Notes: generated by a model from the letters alone, not told the origin. A stretch of DNA of 43,693 nucleotides from a virus (IMGVR_UViG_2698536506_000010); one strand, 5' to 3'. Counted from the stretch's first letter, positions 25,449 to 43,693 are shown. A program made the numbers and translations.

Positions 25449-25460
25449 GGAGCCGGAATA

Positions 25461-25910: not shown

Positions 25911-25927
25911 CAAAAGGACAAAAACAT

Positions 25928-27004: not shown

Positions 27005-27013
27005 GGAATCAGC

Positions 27014-27307
27014 ATGGCTAAATACGAAGTTGTGCGCCCATGGTTCGGCGTGAAGGTTGGCGACGTGGTGGAGTTGAAAGAGCTTCATCAGGCGCTGAAG
27101 TCTAACGTCCGGCTGATGAAAGGCGAGGCTGGTGGCGAGCTGAAACCCGCAACACCTGATGCCGGTACCGGTGAGAAATCTCGCAAAGAGATTATTCAGA
27201 ACCGCCTTACTGAACTGGGCATTGATTTCAAAGGCACCCTGGGCGCTGAAAAGCTCAGTGAGCTGTTGCCGGATGGCGAACTCGAAAAGCTTTTCCCTGC
27301 TGAATAA
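27014..27307 (+). CDS. Hypothetical head-region protein with HeH-like motif (97 aa)
   Basis: C-terminal EIIQNRLTELGIDFKGTLGAEKL resembles a HeH/SAP-like helix-hairpin. Confidence 0.4.
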   Translation: MAKYEVVRPWFGVKVGDVVELKELHQALKSNVRLMKGEAGGELKPATPDAGTGEKSRKEIIQNRLTELGIDFKGTLGAEKLSELLPDGELEKLFPAE

Positions 27308-27310
27308 CAG

Positions 27311-27332
27311 CCGCCGCTAAGGCGGTTTTTTT
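27311..27332 (+). terminator. Rho-independent terminator after the capsid genes
   Basis: CCGCC-gctaa-GGCGG hairpin followed by TTTTTTT. Confidence 0.55.
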
Positions 27333-27369
27333 ATGCCCCGCTCCGGCGGGGTATTTCACGGAGTCGATA

Positions 27370-27771
27370 ATGGTAACTCTCGAACAGGCGAAGGAGTATC
27401 TGGAGAGCCAGGGAATTACCATTCCCGATTTTGTTCTTCAGGCTCTCGTCGACCAGGCCAACAGCATACAGGAGTGTCTCGATGCACATTATCCTGCATC
27501 GACCTCGCTGTTGATTCAGCTCTATCTGCTGGCGCTTATGGGGCTCGGGCAGGGGGATAAATACATCTCCAGCCAGACGGCTCCAAGCGGGGCGTCGCGC
27601 TCTTTCAGGTACCAGTCGTTTACCGATCGCTGGAAGGCCTCGGTTAACCTGTTGCGAGGGCTGGATAAATACGGTTGTGCCACCTCCCTGATCCCTGCCG
27701 ACCCTACCGCCACCCCGGCATTCGCTGGTATCTGGATCGGTAAGGGCGGCTGCATGTGCGGGGATAAGTGA
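27370..27771 (+). CDS. Putative head-tail connector / head completion protein (133 aa)
   Basis: Position between capsid and tail genes. Confidence 0.35.
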   Translation: MVTLEQAKEYLESQGITIPDFVLQALVDQANSIQECLDAHYPASTSLLIQLYLLALMGLGQGDKYISSQTAPSGASRSFRYQSFTDRWKASVNLLRGLDKYGCATSLIPADPTATPAFAGIWIGKGGCMCGDK

Positions 27772-27944
27772 TGACGTACAAATCAGTTAAGCACGGGCTG
27801 CCACGTTCGTTTACCCGCGTCTGGGTGATTACCGACACAGGGCGGGAGACTACCGGCTACGTGAAATCGGACGGCGAGTGGCATATCAACTGCCCGCGCA
27901 TCCGGGCGACTGGCGCGAAGGTGCTGCGCTGGAAGGAGGGCTGA
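27771..27944 (+). CDS. Hypothetical small protein (57 aa), not in the ORF track
   Basis: ATG overlaps the upstream stop; its stop overlaps the ATG of the next gene. Confidence 0.3.
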   Translation: MTYKSVKHGLPRSFTRVWVITDTGRETTGYVKSDGEWHINCPRIRATGAKVLRWKEG

Positions 27945-28300
27945 TGTCGTCTACAGCTTCATGGTCCTACAACAAGCCGTGCACGATATGGCGTAAGGGC
28001 GCGGGCGGTAATGACGAGTGGGGCGATCCTGTCGACCCATACGAACCGCCTGAAACCATCATGTGCGACTACATCGGCGGTCTGTCAGCAAAGCTCGGGT
28101 CAATCGGTAAAGAGGTTGTCGTTAAGAACACCTTCTTTACTGCGTATGCGTTGGCTGATGAGGGCGATTACATCCTGATTGGTGTGAGCACTGAACCGGA
28201 CCCGGTCGTGGCCGGTGCCGATGAGGTGCGTCACGTGACGCGCTGGAACGATACTCTCGACGGTCTGGAAGATGACTGGGCGATAATTACGGGAGTGTAG
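27944..28300 (+). CDS. Hypothetical head-tail joining protein (118 aa)
   Basis: Internal ATG at 27944 coupled to the upstream ORF. Confidence 0.4.
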   Translation: MSSTASWSYNKPCTIWRKGAGGNDEWGDPVDPYEPPETIMCDYIGGLSAKLGSIGKEVVVKNTFFTAYALADEGDYILIGVSTEPDPVVAGADEVRHVTRWNDTLDGLEDDWAIITGV

Positions 28301-28302
28301 CC

Positions 28303-28671
28303 ATGGGCATCAAAGTGCGCGGCGTTAAGCAGTCGAAAGTCGGGCTCAACCGCATCATAAACGACGTCAAAGGGCGCAAGGTCGTCAGGGCGCTACAGTC
28401 AGCAATGATAATCGGCAGCTCCCAGGCCGCGCTTTACACGCCGATCGACACCTCGACGCTGTTGAATAGCCAGTATCGGGAGTTGATAAACAGCGGCGTT
28501 CGGCTGACAGGGCGTGTCGGATACACGGCGAACTACGCTGTGTTCGTTCATGATCCGAATGTGCCGCAAACCTTCCGCCGCGCAACCGCGCAGAAAGAGT
28601 TCCTCACAAAAGGCTTTGAAGATACCCGCAGCCAGATTGATGCCGTAATGCGCAAGGAGCTTTCAGTATGA
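28303..28671 (+). CDS. Putative tail completion protein (HK97 gp10-like) (122 aa)
   Basis: Position and size; motif AALYTPIDTSTLLNS. Confidence 0.4.
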   Translation: MGIKVRGVKQSKVGLNRIINDVKGRKVVRALQSAMIIGSSQAALYTPIDTSTLLNSQYRELINSGVRLTGRVGYTANYAVFVHDPNVPQTFRRATAQKEFLTKGFEDTRSQIDAVMRKELSV

Positions 28672-29051
28672 CGCCTGCCATGTATGAGCGCGTGCGTAAC
28701 TACTTCGTTGATGCCGGGCTTACCACTGGCTTCATTGTTCAGTTGCTGGCATGGGACGACACAAAGAAGCTAACCGATGCATTCATAGTTTTCCGGCCCA
28801 ACGGCGGGTCGAACATCCGTAACGACCTTGGCGCCGATCACTATGTATTGGTAGATATCATCTCCGCCAAGGACAAACGCCGCGCGGCAGCAGAGAAGGC
28901 TCAGGAAATCATCAATTATGTCGAACAGAACGACATTGCCGACGAGTGCCTTGGTCTGATTCAAAACCTCGGCAATATGCCTGCACCCATCCTGACCGAA
29001 GAGGGGCGCCTGGTCTTCAGACTCCAGTTCATGTGCGTTTACGGCGAATAA
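28668..29051 (+). CDS. Putative tail terminator / minor tail protein (127 aa)
   Basis: Overlaps the upstream stop; immediately precedes the major tail protein gene. Confidence 0.4.
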   Translation: MTPAMYERVRNYFVDAGLTTGFIVQLLAWDDTKKLTDAFIVFRPNGGSNIRNDLGADHYVLVDIISAKDKRRAAAEKAQEIINYVEQNDIADECLGLIQNLGNMPAPILTEEGRLVFRLQFMCVYGE

Positions 29052-29070
29052 CCCAATCACCAACCCATCA

Positions 29071-29096
29071 GGCTGCCATCCGGCGGCCTTTTTTAT
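29071..29096 (+). terminator. Rho-independent terminator or attenuator
   Basis: GGCTGCC-atcc-GGCGGCC hairpin (one G-U pair) followed by TTTTTTATTT. Confidence 0.45.
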
Positions 29097-29109
29097 TTGA
29101 GAGGTACAC

Positions 29110-29865
29110 ATGCAAGGCTGTGCTAATGATTTTGGCAAGCTGATCGGGAAAGTAGCTGTGCTACGCATGGCCTTTGGCTGCCCCGACGCAGTGCCAGCGC
29201 TTTCTGAGTGGAAGCGTCTCGGCGCTATGACGACCAAGGGTATCGACTATTCGATGAACACCATTAACTCCGAAGCTGATGATGCTAAAGGGCTGGTGGA
29301 AAACTTGGTCAACAACATGGATCTGACGATCTCCGGTGAAGGGGAGTTCCGCAAATCTGATAAAGATAACGAGATCGGCGCGTGGCGTCTGTCGAAGTAC
29401 ATCTTTGACGAAGTTCAGGCAGGCCGTCAGCCTAACCTGTGGGTGCGTTTCGACTTCGCTGGTGAGAACGCCGGTACTTACATCCAGGGTTACATGAACA
29501 CAACGTCATGGTCTGGTGATTTCGGAACCAACGATATCTCCACGTTCTCCGGCGAGTGGAAGGTATATGACGCCGACACCGTTGTGTTTGAAGTCGCTGA
29601 TTCCATCGCGGCCACTGGCGTCGAAGTTACCCCTGCAACTGCTTCCCTGGTCGTTGGCGCAACCCAGCAGCTGAGCGGCGCAGTTCAGCCAACCGATGCG
29701 ACTAACAAGGCGATCACCTGGACGACTTCGGCGGCCTCTATCGCCACTGTCAGCTCAACCGGCCTGGTAACGGCCGTCTCCGCCGGCACCGCGACTATTA
29801 CGGCTACCACTGCTGACGGTGACTTCACCGATACCTGCGCTGTTACCGTGACAGCCGCGCCGTAA
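29110..29865 (+). CDS. Major tail protein with C-terminal Ig-like (Big_2-type) domain
   Basis: C-terminal TATGVEVTPATASLVVGATQQL...ITWTTSAASIATVSSTGLVTAVSAGTATITATTADGDFTDTCAVTV is a classic Big_2 pattern; located before chaperone and tape measure. Confidence 0.7.
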   Translation: MQGCANDFGKLIGKVAVLRMAFGCPDAVPALSEWKRLGAMTTKGIDYSMNTINSEADDAKGLVENLVNNMDLTISGEGEFRKSDKDNEIGAWRLSKYIFDEVQAGRQPNLWVRFDFAGENAGTYIQGYMNTTSWSGDFGTNDISTFSGEWKVYDADTVVFEVADSIAATGVEVTPATASLVVGATQQLSGAVQPTDATNKAITWTTSAASIATVSSTGLVTAVSAGTATITATTADGDFTDTCAVTVTAAP

Positions 29866-29915
29866 TCACTACAAAGGGCGGCGTGCTGCCCTTGATACTG
29901 GTTATGGAGAACGAT

Positions 29916-30659
29916 ATGACACCCTTGAAAGAGATTGGCGAGTGCATGATTGGTGCTGGAGAGCGGGAATATTTCTTCCGGCCATCGTTCCGTAACATGA
30001 CGCGGATCGGTGAACCAGAGCATATCGTCCGCACTTTCTACGCGCTGTTCAATGACGACGTGGCGAAGATGCTTGAGGCGGCGCGCGAAATTCACAGTGC
30101 GATACCAGAGCATCAGCGCAGATTTTACGCCCACTATATCGGTGACGTTTCGCTGCCACGCTGGGCACTTGATGCAGCAGGCTCTGCCGCGTTTGTGCGT
30201 GAGGCATTACTCTCGGCTATTAACGTCATTCAGTCCTGCTGTGAAGAGGAAGTTTCAGAGCTGACAGGCTGGCATGAGCCATCACGCACTGGACGGCGCA
30301 CATTCGTATGGCACCGCGGCGCGCTTCCGCCTGAGAACCTTATTCTGATAGCGCAGTCGCTGATCATGCATGGTGTTATCGGCAGGGCCAAGGTTCGTAA
30401 ATTGCAGAAGCACGAAAGCAAGGAAACGACGCCGGAGTTTCACGCGACTGAATACATCATGGCGGCGAGAAACCATTTCGGGATCAGCAGGGAAGAGGCT
30501 GAAAACCTTACCATGACCGAATTCGCCATGATGCTTAACGCCAAATACCCTGACCAGAAAGGCTTCACCAGGGAAGAGTACGACGCTGTTATGGACGATG
30601 ACGATCGCCGCTGGCAGGAAATGGTTGAGCGCGAAAAATCAGCAAAAAAAGCGGCCTGA
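29916..30659 (+). CDS. Putative tail assembly chaperone (247 aa)
   Basis: Between major tail and tape-measure genes; start could also be ATG 29904. Confidence 0.45.
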   Translation: MTPLKEIGECMIGAGEREYFFRPSFRNMTRIGEPEHIVRTFYALFNDDVAKMLEAAREIHSAIPEHQRRFYAHYIGDVSLPRWALDAAGSAAFVREALLSAINVIQSCCEEEVSELTGWHEPSRTGRRTFVWHRGALPPENLILIAQSLIMHGVIGRAKVRKLQKHESKETTPEFHATEYIMAARNHFGISREEAENLTMTEFAMMLNAKYPDQKGFTREEYDAVMDDDDRRWQEMVEREKSAKKAA

Positions 30660-30731
30660 GTTAATAATGAATGTACCGTAATCGCCTGACCGGGCGTAAT
30701 ATGGCTCGACAATAAAACTCAGGGGATAAGA

Positions 30732-31106
30732 GTGAAGAAAATACTTTTGGCTTTGGCTATTCCGCTGGCTCTGGCTGGCTGCAAGCCGGGTGAAGAAAAG
30801 GCAATTTCTTTGGCGCAATCAGAAGTTTCAGCAAACCTGCTTGATCCAAGCAGTGCGCAATTCCGCAACGTGAAAGTTGCAAAAATGATGGATGCTGACG
30901 AGGGCCGGGTCTTTGCTGTAGTTTGCGGGGAAATTAACGGCAAGAACGGTTTTGGGGCCTATGCAGGGTTTCATCCATTCTTCGTTGAGCTCAAAATGAA
31001 ATCGAAGGGGATGTTCTCAAAAGGTGTCGACTACACCCTTGGTGATCACTTCCTCAGCTCGAAAGATACGCCACCACCGCCGGCCTACATCGAACGATGC
31101 CAATAA
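30732..31106 (+). CDS. Lipoprotein moron inside the tail gene cluster (124 aa)
   Basis: Signal peptide with lipobox (MKKILLALAIPLALAGC); GTG start with AGGGGA RBS; own terminator. Confidence 0.55.
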   Translation: MKKILLALAIPLALAGCKPGEEKAISLAQSEVSANLLDPSSAQFRNVKVAKMMDADEGRVFAVVCGEINGKNGFGAYAGFHPFFVELKMKSKGMFSKGVDYTLGDHFLSSKDTPPPPAYIERCQ

Positions 31107-31122
31107 ACGACACGAATAACAA

Positions 31123-31147
31123 ACCCACCAACCGGTGGGTTTTTTTA
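31123..31147 (+). terminator. Rho-independent terminator after the lipoprotein gene
   Basis: CCCACC-aacc-GGTGGG hairpin followed by TTTTTTT. Confidence 0.6.
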
Positions 31148-31163
31148 TGCCCGGAGAAAACTG

Positions 31164-33467
31164 ATGTCTGAGAAAGCAGGCGAGATTTATTACGACATCG
31201 AGGCCGATGTATCTGGCTTGCTCAAGGCCCAGGGAAAGGCTAATAAGTCGCTCGACTCCATCGGCAACTCGGCGACCAATGCAGCCAAAAAGATGGATGA
31301 GTTGCAGACGAACATCAACCGCGTCGCCGGGGCAATTGCCGCCTCACTCGTTGTTGACTGGGGTAAGGCGTTTCTCGTAGCTGCTGACAACATGAGCCAG
31401 CTCAACGCGCGTATAGAGAGGCTCACTGGTAGCGCAGCGACAGCCTCGCAGACTATGCAGAATCTGATGCGCATCAGTTCGGCAACGGGTGGTTCGCTAC
31501 AGGATACAGCAAAGCTGTGGGAGACTCTCAGCACGGCGTTGCGCGATACCGGAGCGACCAACGGCCAGATAATCCAGCTTACCGAAACACTTCAGAAAAT
31601 AGGTCGCATTGGCGGATCCTCGACAGAAGAAATGGCGAATGCTCTTCGTCAGTTCGGCCAGTCAATTTCATCAGGTACTGTCCGGGCGGAGGAGTTCAAC
31701 TCCATCCTTGAGCAAATGCCGGAACTGGCGCGCCAGATTGCCGCCGGGATGGGTGTAAGCATCGGAGAGCTTCGTCAGCTCATGCTGGACGGGAAACTGA
31801 CGGCAGAAGATGCTCTCAACGCCATTCAGAAGCAAACCGGCTCAGTGAATGCAGAGTTCGAGAAACTCCCGCGCACGCTTTCACAGGCTAATACCGCGCT
31901 GACAAACTCATTCCTGTCGATGATTGACTCTGTTAACCAGGCGACTGGAGCAAGCACAGGGCTGGTTGCGGTTATCGATTCAATGACTGCTGCACTCGAC
32001 CGGCTGGTGGGTAAAGCGGCGTCGGCAGATGCTCAGATATCGGATCTGAACAGCACCGCTGAAATGTTTACCCGCCGCGCGCGCACCTGGTCATGGCTTG
32101 GGCTTGATGGTTGGGAGGCGCAAAACAAAGCGCTGGCCGGGCTGAGTAATAAAGCCGCCATGCTGGTTGGCGACCTGGCCGCTGTTTCCAAAGCATCGCA
32201 GACCGCGGCTAACACAAAGCCGATCGAGATTAAAACGACCGCCTCAGCTACTGGCGGCAAAGCGAAAGGCGGAAAGTCTGCTGCACAGAAAGAAGCTGAG
32301 CAATACGCTAAAGCGCAGGACTCGATAAACGAAAAATTGGAAGCCCTGAGACAAGAATCTATTCTTGCAGCAGGTTCAACCAGCGAATTAACCCGTGAGC
32401 AGCAACTACTAAGGGCAGAGATGTCTCTTGGTGCCGATGCAACGGATGAACAGCGACAGAAGGCAAGAGAGTACAAAGCACAGGCTTTGGATACTGCTGA
32501 AGCATTGAAAAAGCAAGCCCAGGCAGAAAGAGATAAGCAAGCTGCGCAGTCCAACTTCAGCAGCCTACAAAGCCAAGCTTCTCCTGTGGCTAGCGTTGAA
32601 AGCCAGTTTCAGCAGCAGATTGAGCAACTCAACCAGTACGCTGCGCTCTATCCTCAGAAAATAGCTGAGGTAGAGGCTGTAAGGGCTAGCATTGAGGAGC
32701 AATATCGCCAAAAAAGACTCGATGCTCAGTGGCAAGAATTAAGTCAAATGAATATCGGCTTCGGCATGCTAACGAGTGCCGTGGATGCCTTTGGCGGAAA
32801 CGCATCAAACGTCATAACTGGACTGATCACAGGAACGATGTCAGCTCAGGATGCTATGCGCTCACTCGGTAACACGATGCTGAATAGCGTGGTAAATGCG
32901 CTAGTCCAGGTTGGGGTTGAGGCTCTCAAAAACTTCATTATCGGTCAGACATTGGGCGCAGCAGCTACTGCTGCTGGAGCATCTCAGGCTGCAATCTTGG
33001 CTACAGCTTGGGCTCCTGCCGCCGCCATGGCTAGCCTCGCTTCATTTGGGGCCAACTCAGTTCCTGCCATGACAGGAATTGCTTCAACGGTAGGCCTGGC
33101 ACAGGGCCTTGCTTTAACCGGTATGCGTTACAATGGCGGCCCGGTGAATGCAGGAGGTCTTTATCAGGTCGGTGAGCGAGGGAAACCTGAGATTTACCAG
33201 GCCAGTACCGGTAAGCAGTACATGATACCGGGCGACAACGGCAGGGTGATCAGCAATAAGGACATGACTTCGGGTGGAGGGGGCGGTGCTCCGATTCTCA
33301 ACATCTACAACTACTCATCCGCGTCTGTAGATGCTCAGGCTACACAGAACGGTGATGGTTCATGGACGCTTGAAGCTTTTATAGCTGACATGAATAACGG
33401 CGGCCCGGCAAGCAACGCCATTACCAGCAACATGAACGTTAAACGCACGCCAAGAGGGCAGGGCTGA
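31164..33467 (+). CDS. Tail tape measure protein (767 aa)
   Basis: Long Ala/Gln-rich alpha-helical protein at the expected tail position; lambda gpH-like N-terminal region (GELRQLMLDGKLTAEDALNAIQKQTG). Confidence 0.85.
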   Translation: MSEKAGEIYYDIEADVSGLLKAQGKANKSLDSIGNSATNAAKKMDELQTNINRVAGAIAASLVVDWGKAFLVAADNMSQLNARIERLTGSAATASQTMQNLMRISSATGGSLQDTAKLWETLSTALRDTGATNGQIIQLTETLQKIGRIGGSSTEEMANALRQFGQSISSGTVRAEEFNSILEQMPELARQIAAGMGVSIGELRQLMLDGKLTAEDALNAIQKQTGSVNAEFEKLPRTLSQANTALTNSFLSMIDSVNQATGASTGLVAVIDSMTAALDRLVGKAASADAQISDLNSTAEMFTRRARTWSWLGLDGWEAQNKALAGLSNKAAMLVGDLAAVSKASQTAANTKPIEIKTTASATGGKAKGGKSAAQKEAEQYAKAQDSINEKLEALRQESILAAGSTSELTREQQLLRAEMSLGADATDEQRQKAREYKAQALDTAEALKKQAQAERDKQAAQSNFSSLQSQASPVASVESQFQQQIEQLNQYAALYPQKIAEVEAVRASIEEQYRQKRLDAQWQELSQMNIGFGMLTSAVDAFGGNASNVITGLITGTMSAQDAMRSLGNTMLNSVVNALVQVGVEALKNFIIGQTLGAAATAAGASQAAILATAWAPAAAMASLASFGANSVPAMTGIASTVGLAQGLALTGMRYNGGPVNAGGLYQVGERGKPEIYQASTGKQYMIPGDNGRVISNKDMTSGGGGGAPILNIYNYSSASVDAQATQNGDGSWTLEAFIADMNNGGPASNAITSNMNVKRTPRGQG

Positions 33468-33964
33468 TGCCAATTATCGACTATCCCGACTGGCTGCCGC
33501 TGGCGCAGAAGGCCAGCAAAAACATGACTCTCGATACCGGGTTCCAGACCGATCAGCCAGCGGTCGGCCCGGCTATCTTCGAGAATCAAACCGACGACCT
33601 GAAAGTGACCTGGTCGCTGACGTGGATCTTCACTCTGGCTGAGGAGCGAGCATTCCAGCAGTGGCTGCGCAGCCCAAACTATCTCAACCGGGGCCTGAAC
33701 TGGTTCAGGATGAATATCAATCTGGGCGGCAGTGGTCTCCAGTTGCAAGAGCTTCACTTCACGCAGATGCCGGTGCAAACCAGTATCGACGGCGGGGTGG
33801 TGACATGGACAGGAACCGTTATTGCCAACCATCTGTACAACGCTGACGACGAGTTTGACGACGTAATTGTTGAGCTGCCGCCGCCGTGGCCTTCAGTGCT
33901 TGATATCGTGGTGACTGGCTATCCGGACGGACGCGATCCAGAAAGTCTTCCGAGGGTTCCCTGA
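33467..33964 (+). CDS. Minor tail protein (lambda gpM position) (165 aa)
   Basis: Start overlaps the tape-measure stop. Confidence 0.45.
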   Translation: MPIIDYPDWLPLAQKASKNMTLDTGFQTDQPAVGPAIFENQTDDLKVTWSLTWIFTLAEERAFQQWLRSPNYLNRGLNWFRMNINLGGSGLQLQELHFTQMPVQTSIDGGVVTWTGTVIANHLYNADDEFDDVIVELPPPWPSVLDIVVTGYPDGRDPESLPRVP

Positions 33965-34434
33965 TGCCTTCATATCGTGAATATAATCAGAAGCGCCCGA
34001 TTAGCGGCTGTTACAACACCATCACGTTCTATCACCCCTCCTTTGGTTACGTCCGCCTCGTCGACAAACAGTTCTTCCCGAAGACGCTTGGCGGCCAGAC
34101 GTACACGCCTGCGCGGTTTGAAATCGAAGAGAGCCAGCAGAGCGGAACTCCGGTAATCGACGCAACGGTGAAGCTTGGGCGACTGTCTTCAGATATCAAA
34201 ACGCTGATGAAGAAGTGGAGTGGTGTTTCCAGGCTGTCGCCTATCACGGCAACTCGTCAGGTTTTCGATAGAGTTGATACCTCTACGCCAATGAAGAATT
34301 GGACATTATTTGTAAAAACTGTCGATGTTGTTTCAGATAACGCATCAGTTACTTTATCAATGACAAACCCGCTAAATAACAACATTGGCCAACCATATGA
34401 TCCAGTCGAATACACGGGGCTTCAGTACCTCTGA
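33964..34434 (+). CDS. Minor tail protein (lambda gpL position) (156 aa)
   Basis: Start overlaps the upstream stop. Confidence 0.45.
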   Translation: MPSYREYNQKRPISGCYNTITFYHPSFGYVRLVDKQFFPKTLGGQTYTPARFEIEESQQSGTPVIDATVKLGRLSSDIKTLMKKWSGVSRLSPITATRQVFDRVDTSTPMKNWTLFVKTVDVVSDNASVTLSMTNPLNNNIGQPYDPVEYTGLQYL

Positions 34435-34447
34435 TTTTATCAGCAGG

Positions 34448-34813
34448 ATGATCGGCGTGCCGTGGTCTAACCGCGCCTGCTCATTCGAAAAGACTGATTG
34501 CTGGGGGCTGGTTGTGCTGTATTACCGACATGTGCTCGACATTGAGCTGCACCAGACGCCGGGTTACGAAGCCGGGGAGGATTTCTTCACCTGCTATCAG
34601 GGAGACGTCGTTTTCTGGCGCAAGGTCGATAAACCGGTCGACGGGGGGATATTTGTCGGGTACCGCGGCGCGCAACCGGCGCACGTTGGCCTGGTACTGA
34701 ACCGGCAGGCGCTGCACTCGCGTGGAGAGAACGGAAGCGTGCGCATGGACTCGTTGCTGGTCATTCAGCGGGCATTCACCAAAGTGGAGTTTTTCGAATA
34801 TGGCGCTGGTTGA
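34448..34813 (+). CDS. NlpC/P60-family tail protein (lambda gpK-like) (121 aa)
   Basis: Candidate catalytic Cys (TDCWGLV) and His (PAHVGLV) in NlpC/P60-like spacing; gpK position. Confidence 0.5.
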   Translation: MIGVPWSNRACSFEKTDCWGLVVLYYRHVLDIELHQTPGYEAGEDFFTCYQGDVVFWRKVDKPVDGGIFVGYRGAQPAHVGLVLNRQALHSRGENGSVRMDSLLVIQRAFTKVEFFEYGAG

Positions 34814-37277
34814 GATATCGAATTTTCCAGGAACGCCTAAGCTGCGTTGCAGGGTGCCAAACGGCACCCTTTTTTATGACTGGCTGGCGGCCAATGACGC
34901 CACTTTCCACCGCGATCTGCTGATCGTCCGCAACGGCGTAAAGCTGGGCGACGATGATGAGCTGGCGTTTGAGCTGAGCGAGCTGGACCACATCCAGATA
35001 TTCGACCAGCCAAAGGGTATTGTCGATGACATCCTGAGCCCGATCTTTAAAGTGGTTGGTCAGGTATTTTCTTTCCTGGCGCCGAAGCCAGCTATTGCAA
35101 ACAACGGCGGTAATACCGTCGACTCGCCCAACAATAGCCTGACCGGTCAGACAAACACCGCGCGCGTCTACAAAGCCAAGCCGGACATCTACGGGCAGAT
35201 TCGTTCGTTCCCGGATCTGATCCAGGAATCAGTATTCGAATCCGTACACCAGACTTCCACAGACGGCGGCCTGAAGTACGTCACTGAATGGATGTGTATT
35301 GGGATCGGCAAATACGATTACGAGTCTGTGCGCTACTCAGAATCAAGCCTGGGCTCTCTGGCTGGTGCCGAATTCCAGTTCTTCCAGCCAGGAGAAGTTA
35401 TCCCGCAGATCGTCGAGGGATACGGGTTCGATGACGTTGACGGCCAGGAGGTTCCCGGGCAGAACGAAGCCAGCGACTTCCCGATCGAAACAGCAACGGC
35501 AAACACGGTGGTCAGCGGAACGTATTCCGGCGGCCAGATAGCGATGAAAATCGTGAAACAAGCCGAGTTCGATTATTTCATGGGGCTGGTTCTGCCGCAC
35601 GCTGTGACTTTCACCATCAACGTGACGTACAGCACGGCCTCAGGCAGCGTCACCACCGACGCGACATTCTCAGGCACGCTGATTTCAGCGGTTGAAACAA
35701 ACGACGGTGCAGTGGTTAACCCGGTGCGCTGGTACACGTTTACGATGAACCAGCTCGAGGGACCACAGGACATCCCGGCGAATGCCACTATCAACACCAC
35801 GAAATTCATCCTCAACGATAACGAGGCGCTGGTGGTTGGGCCGTTCTTTTCCCCGGTCGAGTCAACGCAGCTGTGGCTGCATACCCAGTCCAGCCTCGGT
35901 GGTAAGAAGGAGACAAACTGGAAGGTTGTCATCTGGAAAATCGACGACGACTACAACCAGGTGCCGGGAACGCAGCAGACGTTTACGTACCGGCAGACGA
36001 CGCCGCACCAGTCGACGAGCGAGGTGTTTTATCGCACTGACAAGATCACTCCGACCGGCGGGTTCGGGAAATACGCGGTCAGCTTCCAGCGCACGGATAA
36101 CTCCGGTGACGCGTCACTGCTGAAGGTAGAAGAGATCCACAGCATCAACATCAGGACAAACGTCGTTCACCCGACCGACACGCTTGTGCGAGTAAAAGTC
36201 CGGGCGACAGAGAACGCTCTTGGCAGCCGCGAGCGCAAATATAACGCACTGGTGACGCGCCATACCATTACGTACGACCTGGACACGCAGACGGTGGATT
36301 ACACCCTGAGGCCGTCGCGCTCGTTCGCTGATGCAGTGGCTCACACCTGGCTCATCATGGGTGAGCAGCCGGTAAGCAGCATTGACCTGTACGGGCTGTA
36401 CTCGATCGCCGAAAGCCTGCCTGATGAGCGACTGGGCTACTTCGACTACACGTTTGACGACGAGAACGACTCACTCGGCGACCGCGTGCAGGCGATCTGC
36501 AATGCGGCGTCGGTGGTGGCGTACTGGGATGACGGCGTGCTGACGTTTACTCGAGACCAGAAGGTTGATTACCCGGCGGCCGTATTCAACCGGGCCAACA
36601 TGAAGACGGACGAGTACAAAATGACGTACGAAGCTACTCTTCCAGGCGGTTATGACGGCGTGCAGGTGTCCTACGTTCACCCGACCACGAACAACAAGAC
36701 GTACATCAACTACCGCGTGCTGAACGGCGCTATCGTTGAACAGGAAGCGGAGAACCCGAACAAGCTGGAGATCGTCGGCTTCCGTAATGAGTATCAGGCC
36801 AGGGAGCGAGCTCTGCGCGAAACCAAGCGCCTGATCTACTCGCGCGTGAAGATGAACGCGAAAGTGTTTGAGGACGGCATTATCCAGGTCGGTAGCGTCA
36901 TCCAGATGCCAGACATCTATGACAGCAACCAGCAGGGTGGTTACGTCACCGGCCGCTCCGGGAATGACTTCGATACCAGCGAGCCGATCACGTTTACCGG
37001 CTCGATGTATGTGCTGGTTACCGACAGCCTGGGTAACCCAACTCTGCGTTATCCGGCCACCGCCCGTAGCGACACGAAGTACGGATTCACCGCGGCTATC
37101 CCTAACATTCAGCTCAACATATGGAACGGTGACACTGTGCAGCTACCGTCGCGCTATCTCATCGCGACAGTGGAAGAGCTGGACAGTCAGCTATGGACGG
37201 TCAACAGCATCAAACCGAACACAGACAATACGGTTTCCCTGACGATCGCAGAGTACAGCGACGCCATCTACCAATAA
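34800..37277 (+). CDS. Tail tip / host specificity protein (J-like) with possible gpI-like N-terminal domain (825 aa)
   Basis: Large protein after the K-like gene; N-terminal about 90 aa (LFYDWLAANDATFHRDLLIVRNGVKLGDDDELAFELSELDHIQIF) resembles tail assembly protein I. Confidence 0.55.
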   Translation: MALVEISNFPGTPKLRCRVPNGTLFYDWLAANDATFHRDLLIVRNGVKLGDDDELAFELSELDHIQIFDQPKGIVDDILSPIFKVVGQVFSFLAPKPAIANNGGNTVDSPNNSLTGQTNTARVYKAKPDIYGQIRSFPDLIQESVFESVHQTSTDGGLKYVTEWMCIGIGKYDYESVRYSESSLGSLAGAEFQFFQPGEVIPQIVEGYGFDDVDGQEVPGQNEASDFPIETATANTVVSGTYSGGQIAMKIVKQAEFDYFMGLVLPHAVTFTINVTYSTASGSVTTDATFSGTLISAVETNDGAVVNPVRWYTFTMNQLEGPQDIPANATINTTKFILNDNEALVVGPFFSPVESTQLWLHTQSSLGGKKETNWKVVIWKIDDDYNQVPGTQQTFTYRQTTPHQSTSEVFYRTDKITPTGGFGKYAVSFQRTDNSGDASLLKVEEIHSINIRTNVVHPTDTLVRVKVRATENALGSRERKYNALVTRHTITYDLDTQTVDYTLRPSRSFADAVAHTWLIMGEQPVSSIDLYGLYSIAESLPDERLGYFDYTFDDENDSLGDRVQAICNAASVVAYWDDGVLTFTRDQKVDYPAAVFNRANMKTDEYKMTYEATLPGGYDGVQVSYVHPTTNNKTYINYRVLNGAIVEQEAENPNKLEIVGFRNEYQARERALRETKRLIYSRVKMNAKVFEDGIIQVGSVIQMPDIYDSNQQGGYVTGRSGNDFDTSEPITFTGSMYVLVTDSLGNPTLRYPATARSDTKYGFTAAIPNIQLNIWNGDTVQLPSRYLIATVEELDSQLWTVNSIKPNTDNTVSLTIAEYSDAIYQ

Positions 37278-37299
37278 GAACCGTCCCCGACCAACCGAA

Positions 37300-37323
37300 C
37301 CCGGCCACCGCGCCGGGTTTTTT
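37300..37323 (+). terminator. Rho-independent terminator between J-like and tailspike genes
   Basis: CCCGGC-caccgc-GCCGGG hairpin followed by TTTTTT. Confidence 0.55.
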
Positions 37324-37334
37324 ATGGAACTAAT

Positions 37335-39311
37335 ATGGCTACGACACCTACCAACCTGTCAGTACCGAGCGAGTCCCCCCGCGATCTGAAATTTAACGCA
37401 GGGAAAATTGATGAATTTGTGACATCGCTGGCACTTCAGTACATTGATCGCTTTGGCAATGCTCATTACACCATCGAAGGCCTGCGCTGGATGGCGCAGC
37501 AGGCTATTTCCCAGTATGGGTGGGTTCCGATCGGAACATTCCAGGATGGTGCAACATTAACTCTGCCTAACCAAATCCTGAAAGACACCACCGACGGTGA
37601 ATACTATCGCTGGGACGGTTCATTTTTGCCATCAGGGAAGGTTGTGCCAAATGGTTCTACGCCAGGATCAACAGGTGGGGTTGGTGTAGGTGCATGGATA
37701 AGTGTTGGTGATTCGGCATTGCGCTCAATGCTTGCTTCTGAGCAAGGAGTTTCCATGGTTGGCGGCATTGCCATGGAGCTCGACTCTCAGGCCGATTTGG
37801 CAACAAACACAACTGTTCAGGGACGGCTGGTGGCAGTAAAGAACACTGTCGGTAGTTACAATAAATACTCCATAATTCCAAACTCTGGTGTGCTTGGCGA
37901 TGGCGATGTAATCATCGACAGGGTGGATGGATTGCAGGCAGAGCTTCAGATTGAAGGGGTTCTGGATGTACGGGCTTTTGCAAAGTCTGGTAGGACAGAC
38001 CAACAAATAATTCAGGCGGAATTAGATTACGCTGGATCTAAATCAGGTCATTGGGTTGTTGGCTTGACGGCCAAAGATAAAACCGGAACACCATGGAGAT
38101 TCAGCACACTTAACGTACCTGACAGCACTGTTTTTCAGGGGCATGGTGGCGCTCTTAAGCTAAATGACAATGTCTGTGTCGATGCTTCAGTTAGCTATTA
38201 CTTGCTGCATAACATAAACGGCAATGATGTATGGCTGGACGGGTTATATATCGATGGCAATATGAGCAATAACTCCTTGTTCACCGTTGCTGATCTTGTA
38301 ACCCTCATCGGAGAAGGGTCAAAAATCACCAATTGCACCCTTATGAATGCCCCCGACTCTGGTCTAATGTTCTCAGGTGTAAAGAATGGTCTAGCGTCTG
38401 CAAACACCATCGGCAATGGCAGAGATGTTGCTATCTATGCAAATGCAAGCGCAGACGGCAGCGCAAGGAACAATGTGTTATCTGACAATGTTCTGTACGG
38501 ATTCCCGGCAGGAGGAATAGGATTTAAACGTTATTTTGCTGATTGTGTAGCCAGCGGGAACGCAATTTATCTCTGTGGAAACGGCGTGACATTTGAGGAC
38601 TTTACTGTTGAGACCGAAGGTAAATTCCCCAAAAGGATTACGCTGTCTGGTACTTTTATGCGAGACATCGGCTTTCCACACCGCGCCACTGCTAACGTAG
38701 CAGAGCGAGGAATTAGCATTCAGCGTGCCTCTGATATCAGCATCACTGGTCTTCAGACAGTTAACGTTTCTGGCAATATATTATACATTGGAAATGGCAC
38801 AGATATCTGCGTTGATAACGCCATGCTTAGAGGTTATGTTGCAAGTCCACAAAGCAACGGAAATAACGGAGTGCTAGTCGTTAATGCCCAAGGAGGGCAC
38901 CTGAGTAATGTGAATGTTACCGCAGTGGCAAGCAGGGCAGGATATTTCCAGACCGTTAATGGCATGTCCGTTCGTGGCGGAAGATGGGTCAGTTCAGGGA
39001 CTCAGTCTGGCATCAGGGTAGATGCTACCGCTCAATTTTCAATATTTAATCCTGACTATATTTCTGGTGGATCTGGAGCTGACGAAGAGTGGTTTGAAGG
39101 AGCAACAGGGATATCGAACGGATACATCCGGGCTAATGCAACAGGCCCAGGCAGATACGGAATAAGAGAGCTTTCTGCTGGGCAGGGCACTAACCCAAAT
39201 ACAAGGCTTATCCCCAGATTTATTGGAGAGAAATGCGTTACCTTGTCAGATAGCGCAATCTGGATGGCAAAAGGTATGTCTAACTCTGATTGGGTTAAGT
39301 TATCTAACTGA
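37335..39311 (+). CDS. Tailspike / receptor-binding protein with beta-helix polysaccharide depolymerase-like domain (658 aa)
   Basis: Gly/Asn/Ser/Val-rich repeats (NAIYLCGNG, ITGLQTVNVSGNILYIGNG, NGNNGVLVVNAQGG) typical of right-handed beta-helix tailspikes; lower GC in the C-terminal two-thirds. Confidence 0.65.
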   Translation: MATTPTNLSVPSESPRDLKFNAGKIDEFVTSLALQYIDRFGNAHYTIEGLRWMAQQAISQYGWVPIGTFQDGATLTLPNQILKDTTDGEYYRWDGSFLPSGKVVPNGSTPGSTGGVGVGAWISVGDSALRSMLASEQGVSMVGGIAMELDSQADLATNTTVQGRLVAVKNTVGSYNKYSIIPNSGVLGDGDVIIDRVDGLQAELQIEGVLDVRAFAKSGRTDQQIIQAELDYAGSKSGHWVVGLTAKDKTGTPWRFSTLNVPDSTVFQGHGGALKLNDNVCVDASVSYYLLHNINGNDVWLDGLYIDGNMSNNSLFTVADLVTLIGEGSKITNCTLMNAPDSGLMFSGVKNGLASANTIGNGRDVAIYANASADGSARNNVLSDNVLYGFPAGGIGFKRYFADCVASGNAIYLCGNGVTFEDFTVETEGKFPKRITLSGTFMRDIGFPHRATANVAERGISIQRASDISITGLQTVNVSGNILYIGNGTDICVDNAMLRGYVASPQSNGNNGVLVVNAQGGHLSNVNVTAVASRAGYFQTVNGMSVRGGRWVSSGTQSGIRVDATAQFSIFNPDYISGGSGADEEWFEGATGISNGYIRANATGPGRYGIRELSAGQGTNPNTRLIPRFIGEKCVTLSDSAIWMAKGMSNSDWVKLSN

Positions 39312-40572
39312 AGTCAGGCCGCTGATGCGGCCTTTTCTCTGATAAAAACTGATTTATTAACTGCATAGTGTAAATAAGCATTAATACTTGAAAAACGAAA
39401 AGTACTCTCTTGCCTGAGCCATATGCTGAAGGCGAGAACATAATCATCATCACTGACGCACACGCCAGGAGAATGGTGAAACAACTGTAAAATGCATCAT
39501 TTTTACACCTGGCATTAAAAACTGCGAGGCATATCATTGAACTAATTGTCAGTAGAGTCACTGCGTGAGATATGTAAACAGTAGTTCCAGCCCAATTACT
39601 TCCTGATAGATAATTAGAGTTTACCATTCCTTTGAATATATTCGCCCCAAGGAGAAAAGATAAGAACATTATTAATTTTACGGCTACAATCGCAGCCGAA
39701 ATTGATGGCAGGACTTTAAAATCTTTTCTTTTCACATAGAGTAACAACAAAGTAAGCATAGCGATATTGATTAGTACGTTGCCAGAAGATGATACGTGAC
39801 TGCTTAAGACATCCACACCTATTGATAGTTTTTGAAAGATGCCATAGCTAACGTAATCTGGAAGCCAGTTTTTTGACTCACTAAAATATCTTAACTTATT
39901 ACCGGGAGCAGAAAAAAGAATAATGGCGCAAGCAATAGTTGTAACGAACATTGCGGCTATGATTGGAGTTATCCTTTTGAGATAGATAGCTCTGCATGCT
40001 AGAAATATCAAGAAGCAGATAGATATCTGTTCGTTGAACCCAAAGTACATAGCAGGTAAAACAGAGAGTGACTTAAGTATAATATTTAATGATTTCTCGT
40101 TAAGTACTGCATAAACAGACAGTAGGCAAAGAGTTGCTGGCATTAGATAGTTATATGACCCTGCGATCCACCATGATGCATCCGCATTAACTTCAGGTTC
40201 TATTAAGAAAAACATAAATAAAGAAACTGTGAAAGGAATCATCGCTCCTTGCTTTTCTCGAAGAGTTATCTTACTTATAATAAAAGATATCAAAATAACA
40301 CATGCTGGTATGAAAGTTTTCCAAAAGTATTCATAACGTATTGTATAGACCATGAGAGCATCTATAGTTAATCTCCCACTCCATTTTATATATCTGTCAT
40401 ATATAACATCATATACATTAGAGTTTAAAAGCAAGCGTGAGAAATTTAAATCATCTCCTGAGTGACGCAAGGATAAACCAGAAAAAAGAAATGCAATAAT
40501 AGCGATAATAAGCATGGCGGCAGTGACTTTTATGGCCACTATCATTTTATTTGCATTGGTAATGGATTTCAT
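39304..40572 (-). CDS. Polytopic membrane protein, putative serotype-specific component of the O-antigen modification operon (422 aa)
   Basis: Many predicted transmembrane segments, very AT-rich, last gene of the gtrA-gtrB operon; overlaps the upstream ORF by 26 nt in another frame. Confidence 0.5.
   Translation of the reverse strand: MKSITNANKMIVAIKVTAAMLIIAIIAFLFSGLSLRHSGDDLNFSRLLLNSNVYDVIYDRYIKWSGRLTIDALMVYTIRYEYFWKTFIPACVILISFIISKITLREKQGAMIPFTVSLFMFFLIEPEVNADASWWIAGSYNYLMPATLCLLSVYAVLNEKSLNIILKSLSVLPAMYFGFNEQISICFLIFLACRAIYLKRITPIIAAMFVTTIACAIILFSAPGNKLRYFSESKNWLPDYVSYGIFQKLSIGVDVLSSHVSSSGNVLINIAMLTLLLLYVKRKDFKVLPSISAAIVAVKLIMFLSFLLGANIFKGMVNSNYLSGSNWAGTTVYISHAVTLLTISSMICLAVFNARCKNDAFYSCFTILLACASVMMIMFSPSAYGSGKRVLFVFQVLMLIYTMQLINQFLSEKRPHQRPDFS
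39316..39340 (+). terminator. Rho-independent terminator after the tailspike gene
   Basis: AGGCCGC-tgat-GCGGCCT hairpin followed by TTTCTCT. Confidence 0.5.
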
Positions 40573-41011
40573 AATTATGGAGTCCGTCGTTAATCAATAT
40601 AGCAATATTGCCAGTGAATTTTTTAACCTTTTTGTTTCTTACTTGAGAGTTAAACCCAGAGCGATCATAAAGCAATGGTTTTCCAAAAGCTCGACTTACA
40701 TCACTTCTTCTGGTCATTGACTTGGGTATGCGCAACCATTTATCTCCGCCTATGCCAGCATAGATATTAACACTATAAAGTGTTTGCAAATTGTAGTTTT
40801 TTACTGCTGCCCAACCATTAACTACAAGTCTGCCGTCCTCAACCCGGCATCTATCTATATGATATATAATTCCTGAACTTGTTTTAGCATTGTCAAATTT
40901 AAATGTCGAAACGTCTGCTTTGTTAATATAAAAATAAAAGCCAGCAGGCAACATAATAGATGTTACAAACAATCCGACAAGTAATGTTTTTACAGGTAGT
41001 GAGACCTTCAT
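40547..41011 (-). CDS. Membrane-anchored protein (154 aa), possible N-terminal part or partner of the serotype-specific component
   Basis: N-terminal transmembrane helix then soluble domain; ATG overlaps the gtrB stop. Confidence 0.4.
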
Positions 41012-41925
41012 CCTTTCCTCTTCAAAATATATCTAGGACGGCTCTTTACTTCGGTGTAAATTCTTCCGATGTACTCACCAAGCACCCCGATACCAATCAA
41101 TTGGACTCCACCAAGGAAAAGGATAGAAACAAGAAGTGACGGGTAGCCCCGCACTGCGTTACCAAAAGCAAGGGTATCAACTATCATCCATGAGCCATAG
41201 AGGAGCGCCACGCCTGCAACCAGAAGGCCGATGTAAGTCCACATGCGAAGCGGGAAAGTAGAGAAACTCGTGATACCCTCAAGTGCCAGGTTCCACAACT
41301 TCCAGCCGTTAAATTTCGTACTTCCTGCGACGCGTTCTGCGCGGGCATATTCAACGACATCTGTACGGCCGCCAACCCAGCTCAATACGCCCTTCATGAA
41401 CAGGTTGCGCTCTGGCATGAGCTTAATGTTTTCCACCACCTCGCGGGACATAAGGCGGAAGTCACCAACGTTTTCTTCAATCTTCGGGTTGCTGATTTTG
41501 TTGTGCAGCTTATAGAACCATTCAGCGGTCTTGCGCTTCAGTCTGCCATCTGTAGAGCGATCAGAGCGTTTAGCGAGAACCATATCAGCACCGGCCTGCC
41601 ATTTCTCGATAAGGTGAGGAATGACTTCGATAGGGTCCTGCAAGTCTACGTCAATCGGGATAATTGCTTCACCGGTCGCGTGGTCAAGGCCGGCGAACAG
41701 GGCTGGTTCTTTCCCAAAGTTACGAGTAAATGACAATGGAACAACAAGCGTATCGGCAACAGCAAGCGCGTTAATAATTGATTCTGTCGCGTCTTTGCTG
41801 CCGTCATTGATGAATACTATCTCGACTTCATGCTGCTGAAGGCCTTCAAATTCCCGAACCGTTTTATAAAAAATCGGTATCGCGTCTTCTTCGTTGAAGA
41901 CGGGAACGACCAGAGAAATTTTCAT
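41008..41925 (-). CDS. gtrB: GtrB-like bactoprenol glucosyltransferase (GT2 family)
   Basis: GT2 hallmarks ([25 protein letters not shown]), C-terminal transmembrane helices, length about 305 aa; coupled to gtrA. Confidence 0.85.
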
Positions 41926-42284
41926 TTCGCATCCCTAAAGACAATAAACTTAGAATAGAAAAAGCCACATACAAGACTAATGGCGGAGAACGCCACCAGT
42001 GTGACGATTGGCGGTAAGCCACACCTGTCAGCAGCCCAACCTACAGCAGCACTCAGCGTTCCCATAAACCCAACGTAAAGCATGTAACGCAGCGTGGAAG
42101 TGGATGCTTTAAAAGTGAAGCGTGCGTTAGCGTAGAAACTAAAGCTGACGGCTACCACGAAACCTGCAAAGTTAGCCAATGCCTGACTTGTGGATAGGCC
42201 ATACACGCAAACACCAAACACGACCCAGTGAATGAGTGTGTTCAGTACGCCAATCGATGTGTACTTAGCAAAAAGTTTTAACAT
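41922..42284 (-). CDS. gtrA: GtrA-like flippase for bactoprenol-linked glucose
   Basis: About 120 aa, four predicted transmembrane helices, begins [20 protein letters not shown] as in GtrA-family proteins; first gene of the operon. Confidence 0.8.
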
Positions 42285-42360
42285 TAGAAAAATCAGTCAA
42301 TTCTGAGAAGGCAGAAGTTTAGCACCAACAAACAACTTGATCGACTATCAGAATAAGATG

Positions 42361-42380
42361 TACTGTATATGTGTACAGTA
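42361..42380. promoter_or_regulatory. LexA (SOS) box
   Basis: TACTGTATATGTGTACAGTA matches the CTGT-N8-ACAG consensus closely; about 20 nt upstream of the ATG at 42400. Confidence 0.7.
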
Positions 42381-42399
42381 TTTATTTTTGGGTGACTAT

Positions 42400-42639
42400 A
42401 TGCCGCGTCGTTCAGATATCGTGATCGCCTTCAGAGCCTCTATTGTGCATGAAAGGTCAGGCCGCAGGATTGTGAAAACTGCTGATTTTGTTCAGGAACT
42501 ACTAAAGGTCAACTGGGACCTAAGTATGGAAGAGGCGAATCAGTGGATAGATAGGTACACAACCTGCTTCAAAGACATCACTCCTGACCACGGAGAGAAC
42601 AAGACGTGGTTCATGTACAACCCGAATGGAGGGCTTTGA
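42400..42639 (+). CDS. Hypothetical SOS-regulated small protein (80 aa)
   Basis: First ORF after the LexA box; stop lies 1 nt before the UmuD'-like start; no family recognised. Confidence 0.4.
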   Translation: MPRRSDIVIAFRASIVHERSGRRIVKTADFVQELLKVNWDLSMEEANQWIDRYTTCFKDITPDHGENKTWFMYNPNGGL

Positions 42640-42640
42640 T

Positions 42641-43024
42641 ATGGCATTTGCATCCCCGGCTAAGGACTATGTGGAGCGCGGCATCTCTTTAGATGCTGAG
42701 TTGATTAGCCATCCATCGGCGACTTACTATGTCAGGTCTGATGTGGCTATTTTGCGTGCCGGCATTAAGCAAGGCGCGCTGCTTGTCGTGGACTCAGCAG
42801 TAAATCCATGTGATGGCTCGATCGTTCTCTGTTCCATCGATGGCCAGTTTGTCCTGAGGTATTACCGTATGTTCCCATGCTTGCATCTGGAGAACATGGA
42901 GACAGGTCGGAAGGAAAGGGCGCGCGGACTCGACGACGGAAGTGCAATCGATGTTTTCGGCGTGGTGACATACATCATTAACAATGCGCGCACCGGTGAA
43001 TTCGACGACAACCCGGTTATTTAA
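42641..43024 (+). CDS. UmuD'-like protein (HumD-like), pre-truncated and lacking the Ser/Lys catalytic dyad (127 aa)
   Basis: Aligns with E. coli UmuD from about residue 25 (SPAKDYVE..., HPSATYYV, LLVVDSA, DVFGVV); Ser60 and Lys97 positions are Ala/Val and Arg; GGAGGG RBS. Confidence 0.65.
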   Translation: MAFASPAKDYVERGISLDAELISHPSATYYVRSDVAILRAGIKQGALLVVDSAVNPCDGSIVLCSIDGQFVLRYYRMFPCLHLENMETGRKERARGLDDGSAIDVFGVVTYIINNARTGEFDDNPVI

Positions 43025-43693
43025 TCAGACGGGCTCGATTAACTCCGGGCCCTGATTCTTCACATTACCAACAGCGCGCGACACTGCGTGCCAGATAAAT
43101 GCATCTGCTGGCACCGAACCGTCGGAAACAATCTCCTCTGCTTCTTTCCCGCCCACATCCTGCCGCATCCATTCGCGTGCTGCTTCCGGTGACAGAACGA
43201 GTTGCCTGCGGTCGTGAATATCGACCAGTCCTTTATCGGCAGCCGCCGTGACTATCATAAAGCCTTCCGCTTCATCATCACGCTCAAACGGCGTACTGCC
43301 TATCGCCGCCATGAATATCGGCTTACCGTCCGCCCGATGAATGAAGTACGGCTGCTTCTTTTCGCCTTGCTTCTTCCATTCGAACCAGCCATCAGCAAAG
43401 ACTATCGCCCGGCCATGTTGCCAGAGCGGTTTGAACATCCGACTGGTGGCCGCAGTTTCCACACGTGCGTTTATCAGAGGCGGCTTATCCCACCATCCTG
43501 GAGCATAGCCCCAGTAAACCGGATCGAGGTGTAGTTGTTCATCTCGTTCGCTCAGCAGCAAAACTTTAGTGCCTGGCGCCACGTTGTACCGGCCAATGGG
43601 TTCCGGGTCGAACGGAATGTCACACTCGGCCTCTTCAGCGATTAACGCCAGATAATCTTCACGGGTCATTGATTGAGAGAAACGTCCGCACAT
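43025..43693 (-). CDS. yedK: YedK-like SOS-response-associated peptidase (SRAP / abasic-site processing protein)
   Basis: Canonical N-terminus MCGRF with Cys2, conserved blocks (RYNVAPGT, PLINARVET, FADGWFEWKK); ATG occupies the last three bases of the window. Confidence 0.8.
   Translation of the reverse strand: MCGRFSQSMTREDYLALIAEEAECDIPFDPEPIGRYNVAPGTKVLLLSERDEQLHLDPVYWGYAPGWWDKPPLINARVETAATSRMFKPLWQHGRAIVFADGWFEWKKQGEKKQPYFIHRADGKPIFMAAIGSTPFERDDEAEGFMIVTAAADKGLVDIHDRRQLVLSPEAAREWMRQDVGGKEAEEIVSDGSVPADAFIWHAVSRAVGNVKNQGPELIEPV

Follow-up and report, generated by a model that had tools for sequence, protein, structure and literature searches.

The right-hand end of the viral sequence IMGVR_UViG_2698536506_000010 (43,693 nucleotides, the whole of which we call the window) carries a LexA-type SOS box, a two-gene operon encoding a 79-aa protein and a 127-aa UmuD'-like protein of the HumD family, and a convergent gene for a YedK-type SRAP protein. 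These elements probably represent an SOS-inducible accessory ('moron') cassette whose HumD protein would join the UmuC protein of the host; the cassette lies in a lambdoid Escherichia coli prophage, at the end next to attR. The proposal builds on the identity and anatomy of the HumD-type gene, on a family-wide association with LexA boxes and absence of umuC, on the position of the cassette relative to the host junction, and on the coupling of the small gene to genes of the UmuD' type.

The HumD-type protein and its LexA box

The 127-aa protein (42641-43024, + strand) scores 164.5 bits against NF051876, the NCBIfam equivalog model 'HumD family translesion DNA polymerase' (cut-off 120), and its residues 1-127 align with profile positions 1-129, i.e. 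over the full length. Full-length identity to HumD of phage P1 is 54%, as it is to N15 gp26 and to phiKO2 gp23, and the match to the solved UmuD' structures (PDB 1i4v) has E=3.8e-21. The protein remains below the cut-off of the UmuD model NF007621 (80.9 vs 110 bits) and far below that of the LexA model TIGR00498 (18.6 vs 110.95 bits), and it has no DNA-binding domain such as a LexA- or CI-type repressor would have. By these profile matches, it classifies as a HumD-family, natively truncated UmuD' analogue. Proteins of this kind are already known and widespread, and databases already annotate this one as HumD; the exact 127-aa sequence is present on 21 contigs.

Alignments made with HMMER and with MAFFT concur in placing Met1 at Cys24 of E. 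coli UmuD, Ala36 at Ser60 and Arg73 at Lys97. The protein lacks the pro-peptide of about 24 residues as well as the Cys/Ala-Gly cleavage site and starts at the N-terminus of UmuD', as the original prediction, made from the DNA alone, had proposed. An alternative ATG at 42626 would give just five more residues and has no ribosome-binding site. The predicted replacement of the self-cleavage dyad is borne out as well: the alignments show neither an intact dyad nor a full-length N-terminal arm, the Ala36 codon (42746-42748, + strand) standing at the position of the lost nucleophile and the Arg73 codon (42857-42859, + strand) at that of the replaced general base. What remains of the arm, AFASPAKDYVE (42644-42676, + strand), corresponds to the family consensus GFPSPAxDYVE. 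In UmuD', the N-terminal arm has a modelled role in which it inserts into UmuC (PMC12926913). In an AlphaFold2 model of the 127-aa protein, the β-core has a predicted local distance difference test score (pLDDT) of about 85, and the N-terminal arm and C-terminal tail are flexible.

The near-consensus SOS box expected ahead of a two-gene operon is indeed of the LexA type. It reads TACTGTATATGTGTACAGTA (42361-42380), ends 19 nt 5' of the first start codon and has two mismatches relative to the 20-mer TACTG(TA)5CAGTA, both its CTGT and ACAG arms being perfect. It is the sole such site in the window, and none of 100 shuffles produced one. The open reading frame (ORF) of the 79-aa protein (42400-42639, + strand) has a GGTGA-like ribosome-binding site, and that of the HumD-type protein has GGAGG 8 nt before its ATG. 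With 1 nt between the TGA of the former and the ATG of the latter, the two genes are a translationally coupled pair. No umuC gene was found in the window or just beyond it: gtrA, gtrB, a gtrC-like gene and tail genes lie to the left, and SRAP, attR and yciB to the right. The claim that umuC is not adjacent is thereby confirmed, as the source contigs give attR and then yciB, and not umuC, immediately beyond the window.

These features recur in the family. The survey covered 99 loci whose genes have HumD-type starts and encode 86 unique proteins, with 67 loci encoding full-length UmuD as controls, over 3-4 kb on either side of each. A LexA-type box precedes the operon at 95 of the 99 HumD-type loci, compared with 63 of the 67 UmuD loci. 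No umuC gene was found near any of the 99, whereas 59 of the 67 controls have one. LexA sites are annotated in the P1 and phiKO2 records. Throughout the HumD family, a Met residue directly precedes the arm motif [GA]F[PA]SPA, and the arm is conserved. A partner for HumD is at hand in the host, since 5423 of the 5426 complete E. coli genomes have a chromosomal umuC.

The dyad behaves differently. It is Ser/Lys in 66 of the 67 full-length UmuD proteins but in only about half of the HumD-type proteins, whose states are S/K (51), T/K (32), A/R (11, a count that includes duplicate source contigs), T/R (6), T/M (4), A/C (1) and G/R (1). The Ala/Arg state is limited to the clade of the window's protein. 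Judging from these alignments, 'catalytically dead' appears to hold here as a feature of the clade, not as a trait of the family. The notion of a pre-activated UmuD' analogue in the manner of P1 HumD thus stands as regards the NF051876 match and the sequence identity; loss of the dyad is not part of the likeness, P1 HumD keeping Ser/Lys. Such variation would be expected if constraint is relaxed after loss of the pro-peptide, since nothing in HumD has to be cut and the dyad is free to drift. Cleavage reportedly serves solely for the activation of UmuD, so that a pre-cut protein has no need of a dyad.

Like the window's protein, P1 HumD, N15 gp26 and phiKO2 gp23 start at the UmuD' position, are about 127-129 aa long, have a LexA box directly 5' and no umuC, and end in a tail of the form EFDDxPV[MI]. 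They differ in that P1 HumD has Ser/Lys at the dyad and the arm GFPSPA, versus Ala/Arg and AFASPA here, and in that neither the 79-aa gene upstream nor a convergent SRAP gene is present in any of the three phages. P1 humD is divergent from lxr, and its phiKO2 counterpart from dinI. A dinI gene occurs at 36 of the 99 HumD-type loci; in the annotated cases (phiKO2, HK140, HK225) it is divergent and shares the regulatory region. With E. coli UmuD/UmuD' (PDB 1i4v, 1umu, 8gmt), the window's protein shares the S24-like β-core, the N-terminal arm (about 40% identity) and probably LexA-type SOS control. Unlike E. coli UmuD, it has no 24-residue pro-peptide, Cys-Gly site, Ser60/Lys97 or umuC operon, and it has an additional acidic tail.

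Prophage cargo beside attR and the convergent SRAP gene

Whether the locus was host DNA at the prophage junction or prophage cargo had been left undecided, and the comparison of empty and occupied sites now rejects a host origin for SRAP and the operon. Long contigs with the exact HumD protein run from the module into yciB, yciC, ompW and the trp operon, a flank that matches E. coli at 100% identity. A module with 91% identity is present in E. coli M171-1, where it lies at one end of a lambdoid prophage, and the integrase at the other end is beside yciA. The two genes yciA and yciB are adjacent in K-12, which has the empty site; in lysogens, the integrase lies beside yciA and SRAP beside yciB. 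Alignment of the junctions indicates that the phage integrates in the last codons of yciB, the core being approximately TCTTCCTG. The phage supplies a slightly different C-terminus of yciB at attR. Because host DNA resumes only 166-167 bp beyond the ATG of SRAP, at the 3' end of yciB, the LexA box, both operon genes and SRAP are prophage cargo, and attR lies some 167 bp beyond the window.

The full module, about 91% identical, is found in only three of the 5426 complete E. coli genomes, and megablast gave no match for the module in the phage collection. The structural and tail region of the window (20200-37500) is 88.6% identical to Enterobacter phage vB_EclS_CobraSix, with parts about 92% identical to ENT1 and BHUENT3/6. 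Since this region matches Enterobacter phages, the prophage backbone is shared across genera.

The convergent gene (43025-43693, − strand), whose start codon lies at the last base of the window, is of the YedK/SRAP type, that of abasic-site crosslinking proteins, as had been thought. Its 222-aa product matches Pfam PF02586 with 175 bits (cut-off 27.1) and NCBIfam NF007413 with 458 bits (cut-off 349), corresponds to phrog_1599, and aligns over residues 1-222 with the solved E. coli YedK (446 bits). MCGRF with the Cys2 nucleophile is kept, and the catalytic segments LINARVE, GWFEWKK and DIHDRR are identical to those of YedK. The nearest known counterparts are the SRAP-domain proteins E. coli YedK and human HMCES, the window's copy being a second, prophage-borne one beside a umuC-less humD. 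The annotated neighbours of yedK in K-12 are only yedF and yedL, the humD sequence itself not having been searched for there. The SRAP and HumD-type genes meet tail to tail, their stop codons abutting without a single base in between. SRAP genes are present at 10 of the 99 HumD-type loci; at three (L098, L099 and L112) they abut the HumD stop as in the window, and HumD is only 57% identical there. Genomic linkage of SRAP to umuDC and its presence in prophages have been described (Aravind et al. 2013, PMC3765255). No LexA box was found in the SRAP upstream region beyond the window, examined in L007, and SRAP is probably expressed on its own. The same region (L007, 11054-11220, corresponding to window end +1 to +167) contains an 11-bp inverted repeat, GACACACAATG-N14-CATTGTGTGTC, and a bidirectional terminator-like hairpin with a 14-bp stem (11168-11199).

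Among the other features, a GC-rich hairpin followed by a T-rich tract (43031-43052, + strand) lies within the 3' end of the SRAP gene and might be the terminator of the LexA-controlled operon. On the left, gtrB (41008-41925) and gtrA (41922-42284), both on the minus strand, are followed by a gap of 115 bp. A 154-aa ORF (40547-41011, − strand) lies between gtrB and a gtrC-like gene of the GT_STM0557 type, overlapping both at its ends; it has no PHROG match, though the source contigs call a gene there. In the early region of the prophage, a 250-aa protein (1626-2378, − strand) matches phrog_887, 'queuine tRNA-ribosyltransferase', with 319 bits, and may be a DpdA-like enzyme of 7-deazaguanine DNA modification.

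The 79-aa protein and the acidic tail of HumD

The first gene of the operon had been taken to encode an uncharacterised protein of 80 aa. Its product has 79 aa and is a full-length member of the large phage family phrog_3893 (113 bits, over residues 1-78 of a 79-position profile), which itself has no assigned function; it has no Pfam and no NCBIfam family match. When 1.84 billion cluster representatives were scanned in full with HMMER, 127 of them, mostly about 79 aa long, were retrieved, and pattern scans of the IMG/VR database confirmed more than 1,000 loci encoding the protein. RefSeq names the protein 'DNA polymerase V', which no model supports and which looks like a misnomer carried over from the neighbouring gene. 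An AlphaFold2 model based on a 48-sequence alignment (pLDDT 87.6) has the layout α1-β-β-α2-α3-β-β, for which a winged-helix fold is predicted. Positive charge is found in the β-hairpin of residues 15-26 and not in helix 3, which is neutral to acidic; the isoelectric point of HumD proteins, at about 5, is on the acidic side. A Foldseek search against PDB and viral libraries yielded a family member only.

In the HumD survey, the 79-aa gene lies directly 5' of humD at 31 of the 99 loci, with a gap of -1 to +5 nt. A second survey was seeded on the small gene and comprised 167 IMG/VR loci, 157 of which have enough downstream DNA. A LexA box is present upstream at 163 of the 167 loci. An ORF for a UmuD'-like protein with an MGFPSPAxDY-like start begins -1 to +2 nt from the stop of the small gene at 138 of the 157 loci by the strict motif, and at about 154 after inspection by eye. 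The 79-aa family is almost obligatorily coupled to UmuD'-like genes. Most of the partners in this survey are of a shorter form, 103-110 aa, in which the arm and the C-terminal strand are kept and the Ser60 loop is deleted.

The short UmuD'-like class comprises L177 (1743-2069), L178 (1743-2066), L179 (1740-2057), L180 (1727-2065) and L181 (1743-2069), plus about 113 IMG/VR loci (L194-L353). It has no Pfam match and is always directly 3' of the 79-aa gene, in a sample that was seeded on that gene. Other arrangements occur. In rare variants, the small gene precedes a complete umuD-umuC operon in Pantoea (L039, 3630-5610) and directly precedes umuC in L183 (3894-5647, a noisy assembly). In two of the loci L039, L093 (2469-5870) and L183, umuC or umuDC stands between the small gene and a C-terminal piece of a short UmuD'-like gene, which suggests recombination at the shared arm sequence. 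A divergent subgroup (P0042, 76 aa) is encoded directly after a gene for the theta subunit of DNA polymerase III (HolE/hot-like) at L184 and L185 (3767-4231 in both), in the early recombination region of phages and with no UmuD'-like gene adjoining.

The genetic setting recalls those of ImpC/DinI (impCAB; PMC7092418), DdrR/UmuDAb and GIL01 gp7/LexA, in which small proteins of about 80 aa are likewise encoded beside a UmuD- or LexA-type protein under damage control. Of these, DdrR and GIL01 gp7 exert their effect through binding to the S24 partner (PMC11332147). The likeness to DdrR is one of setting and size. No sequence relationship of the 79-aa protein to ImpC/DinI was found, and its predicted winged-helix fold also sets it apart. 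We rejected a DinI/ImpC identity: there is no match to Pfam DinI, and what phmmer searches with DinI retrieve at these loci are other, divergent ORFs, in no case the small gene. Nor could natural fusions serve as Rosetta-stone evidence, P0064, P0102, P0137, P0075 and P0108 being read-throughs in noisy assemblies and P0224, P0231 and P0251 not being fusions. In Pseudocitrobacter faecalis, two 207-aa proteins called 'HumD family' in RefSeq (P0156 and P0165) do join the 79-aa protein to HumD. Near codon 65, the small gene has shifted into the frame of HumD, which is open for about 25-30 codons 5' of its ATG, and the joined proteins stem from this frameshift. As the frameshift removes the last wing strand, the product is probably the result of a mutation.

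The C-terminal tail of the window's protein, GEFDDNPVI (42995-43021, + strand), has the nearly invariant family form E-F-D-D-[CN]-P-V-[MI]-COOH. HumD-length proteins end in AR[SNT][GA]-E-F-D-D-[CN]-P-V-[MI], the residues E, F, D, D and P each being found in 93-97 of 103 unique proteins. None of the 67 chromosomal UmuD proteins has such a tail. The criterion E-F-D-D-x-P-V-[MI] was derived in this analysis and is no part of the published HumD definition. The tail is family-wide in loci L002-L006, L016-L031 and L097-L176, and short UmuD'-like variants end in DD-x-P-[VI] or DD-R-V-V. With a pLDDT below 50 in the AlphaFold2 model, it is predicted to be flexible. It resembles the acidic C-terminal tip of SSB (single-stranded DNA-binding protein), DFDDDIPF, but the Pro of HumD is one position off, and Met or Ile takes the place of the terminal Phe. 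We take this likeness as a lead, not as a finding.

A possible role in translesion synthesis

In a lysogen, the two genes would be silenced by host LexA bound to the box. Upon DNA damage, by which the prophage is induced as well, LexA would be removed and the 79-aa and HumD-type proteins produced jointly by coupled translation. Having kept the UmuC-binding arm and the dimeric β-core, HumD would serve as a UmuD' that does not need RecA-stimulated self-cleavage, and, by analogy with P1 HumD, it could form with host UmuC a translesion polymerase like DNA polymerase V (pol V), sooner than host UmuD permits. Damaged phage or host DNA would then be copied at the cost of mutations. The 79-aa protein would most likely be a dedicated partner or modulator of the UmuD'-like protein, a role suggested purely by the coupling of the genes. 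The convergent SRAP, as separately expressed cargo, would shield abasic sites in single-stranded DNA.

The analogy comes from P1, in whose record humD is annotated with functional complementation of E. coli UmuD'. P1 HumD is said to promote SOS mutagenesis, and it is reportedly the only member for which substitution of UmuD' with host UmuC is known. It has been described as an already activated UmuD (PMC7092418, citing McLenigan 1999).

Several observations weigh against this scheme. The arm of the window's protein, AFASPA, departs from the consensus GFPSPA, and for that reason UmuC activation here would be an extrapolation from a 54% identical relative. About two thirds of the HumD-length genes, including those of P1, N15 and phiKO2, do not have the 79-aa gene. 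Among complete genomes, the closest relative is M171-1, and its LexA box (L001, 8001-8020) has TAG for CAG in the right half-site (TACTGTATGTATGTATAGTT); this copy may have escaped LexA control. Lastly, a consensus scan of the + strand of the window yielded no canonical sigma-70 promoter. A candidate missed by that scan, TTGATC (42337-42342)-N18-TACTGT, overlaps the LexA box and would be a guess.

The cassette might do the opposite and restrain the host pol V. A dyad-less HumD and the 79-aa protein would then titrate UmuC, or heterodimerise with host UmuD or UmuD', so that mutagenic synthesis is blocked or delayed, or a UmuD2C-like replication checkpoint is imposed, during phage replication. 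The window's clade, with its non-consensus arm and lost dyad, could be read in this way, and so could the shorter partners of the 79-aa protein, which lack the whole Ser60 loop and perhaps are not ordinary subunits of pol V. The neighbourhood offers further hints: dinI, a modulator of RecA, is a frequent divergent neighbour, and the adjoining SRAP gene belongs to a family that is said to inhibit mutagenic translesion synthesis at abasic sites (PMC9436759). We nonetheless consider restraint unlikely. The features that make UmuD' an activator, the arm and the β-core, are conserved, and a pre-cut protein can lose its dyad without losing anything that it needs. P1 HumD, moreover, reportedly promotes SOS mutagenesis and does not block it.

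Another possibility is a split regulator similar to LexA or CI, in which the 79-aa protein provides the DNA-binding winged helix and the S24-like protein the dimerisation, so that the two together would regulate the transcription of phage or host genes in time with the SOS response. In LexA itself, a winged helix is joined to an S24 domain, and the layout predicted for the 79-aa protein agrees with the first of these. The near-obligate pairing of the genes and the existence of small partners of S24-family regulators, such as DdrR with UmuDAb and GIL01 gp7 with LexA, would also fit, as would the 207-aa read-through product of Pseudocitrobacter, but the latter is due to a frameshift that deletes the last wing strand. 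The sequence of the 79-aa protein matches neither LexA_DNA_bind nor any helix-turn-helix family, and its charge, positive in the hairpin and neutral to acidic in helix 3, is not what such a role would call for. The strictly conserved arm GFPSPAxDYVE, a UmuC-binding feature, would be superfluous in a repressor. Altogether, we find this explanation improbable.

That the locus is a decaying remnant is hardly credible. The loss of the catalytic residues, the mutated LexA half-site of M171-1 and the truncated humD fragments at the ends of several phages (mEp234, Sf101, Stx2 phages) might suggest it, but neither reading frame is interrupted, the ribosome-binding sites are good, the exact protein recurs on many contigs, the score is well over the family cut-off, and the arm, core and C-terminal tail are conserved across the 103 unique proteins.

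A bolder reading, which we hold to be doubtful, goes further. The 79-aa protein might be a hitherto unrecognised, dedicated subunit or chaperone of phage UmuD'-like proteins, and the pair, together with the SSB-tip-like tail, might make up a two-component device with which temperate enterobacterial phages capture host UmuC and/or SSB-interaction hubs during the SOS response.

In SOS mutagenesis, the slowest checkpoint is the RecA-dependent cleavage of UmuD. UmuD' analogues that phages encode in pre-activated form circumvent it, and the supply of mutations can therefore rise in lysogens exposed to DNA-damaging antibiotics. The copy in the window is in itself nothing new in principle. What the survey adds to the family is the decay of the dyad once the pro-peptide is gone, a near-obligate, co-translated small protein, and a nearly invariant acidic C-terminal peptide of HumD. 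The small protein and the tail could change the view of how mobile elements regulate pol V. If the two-component device proved true, it would represent a distinct and very common phage control of translesion synthesis, beyond a simple substitute for UmuD'.

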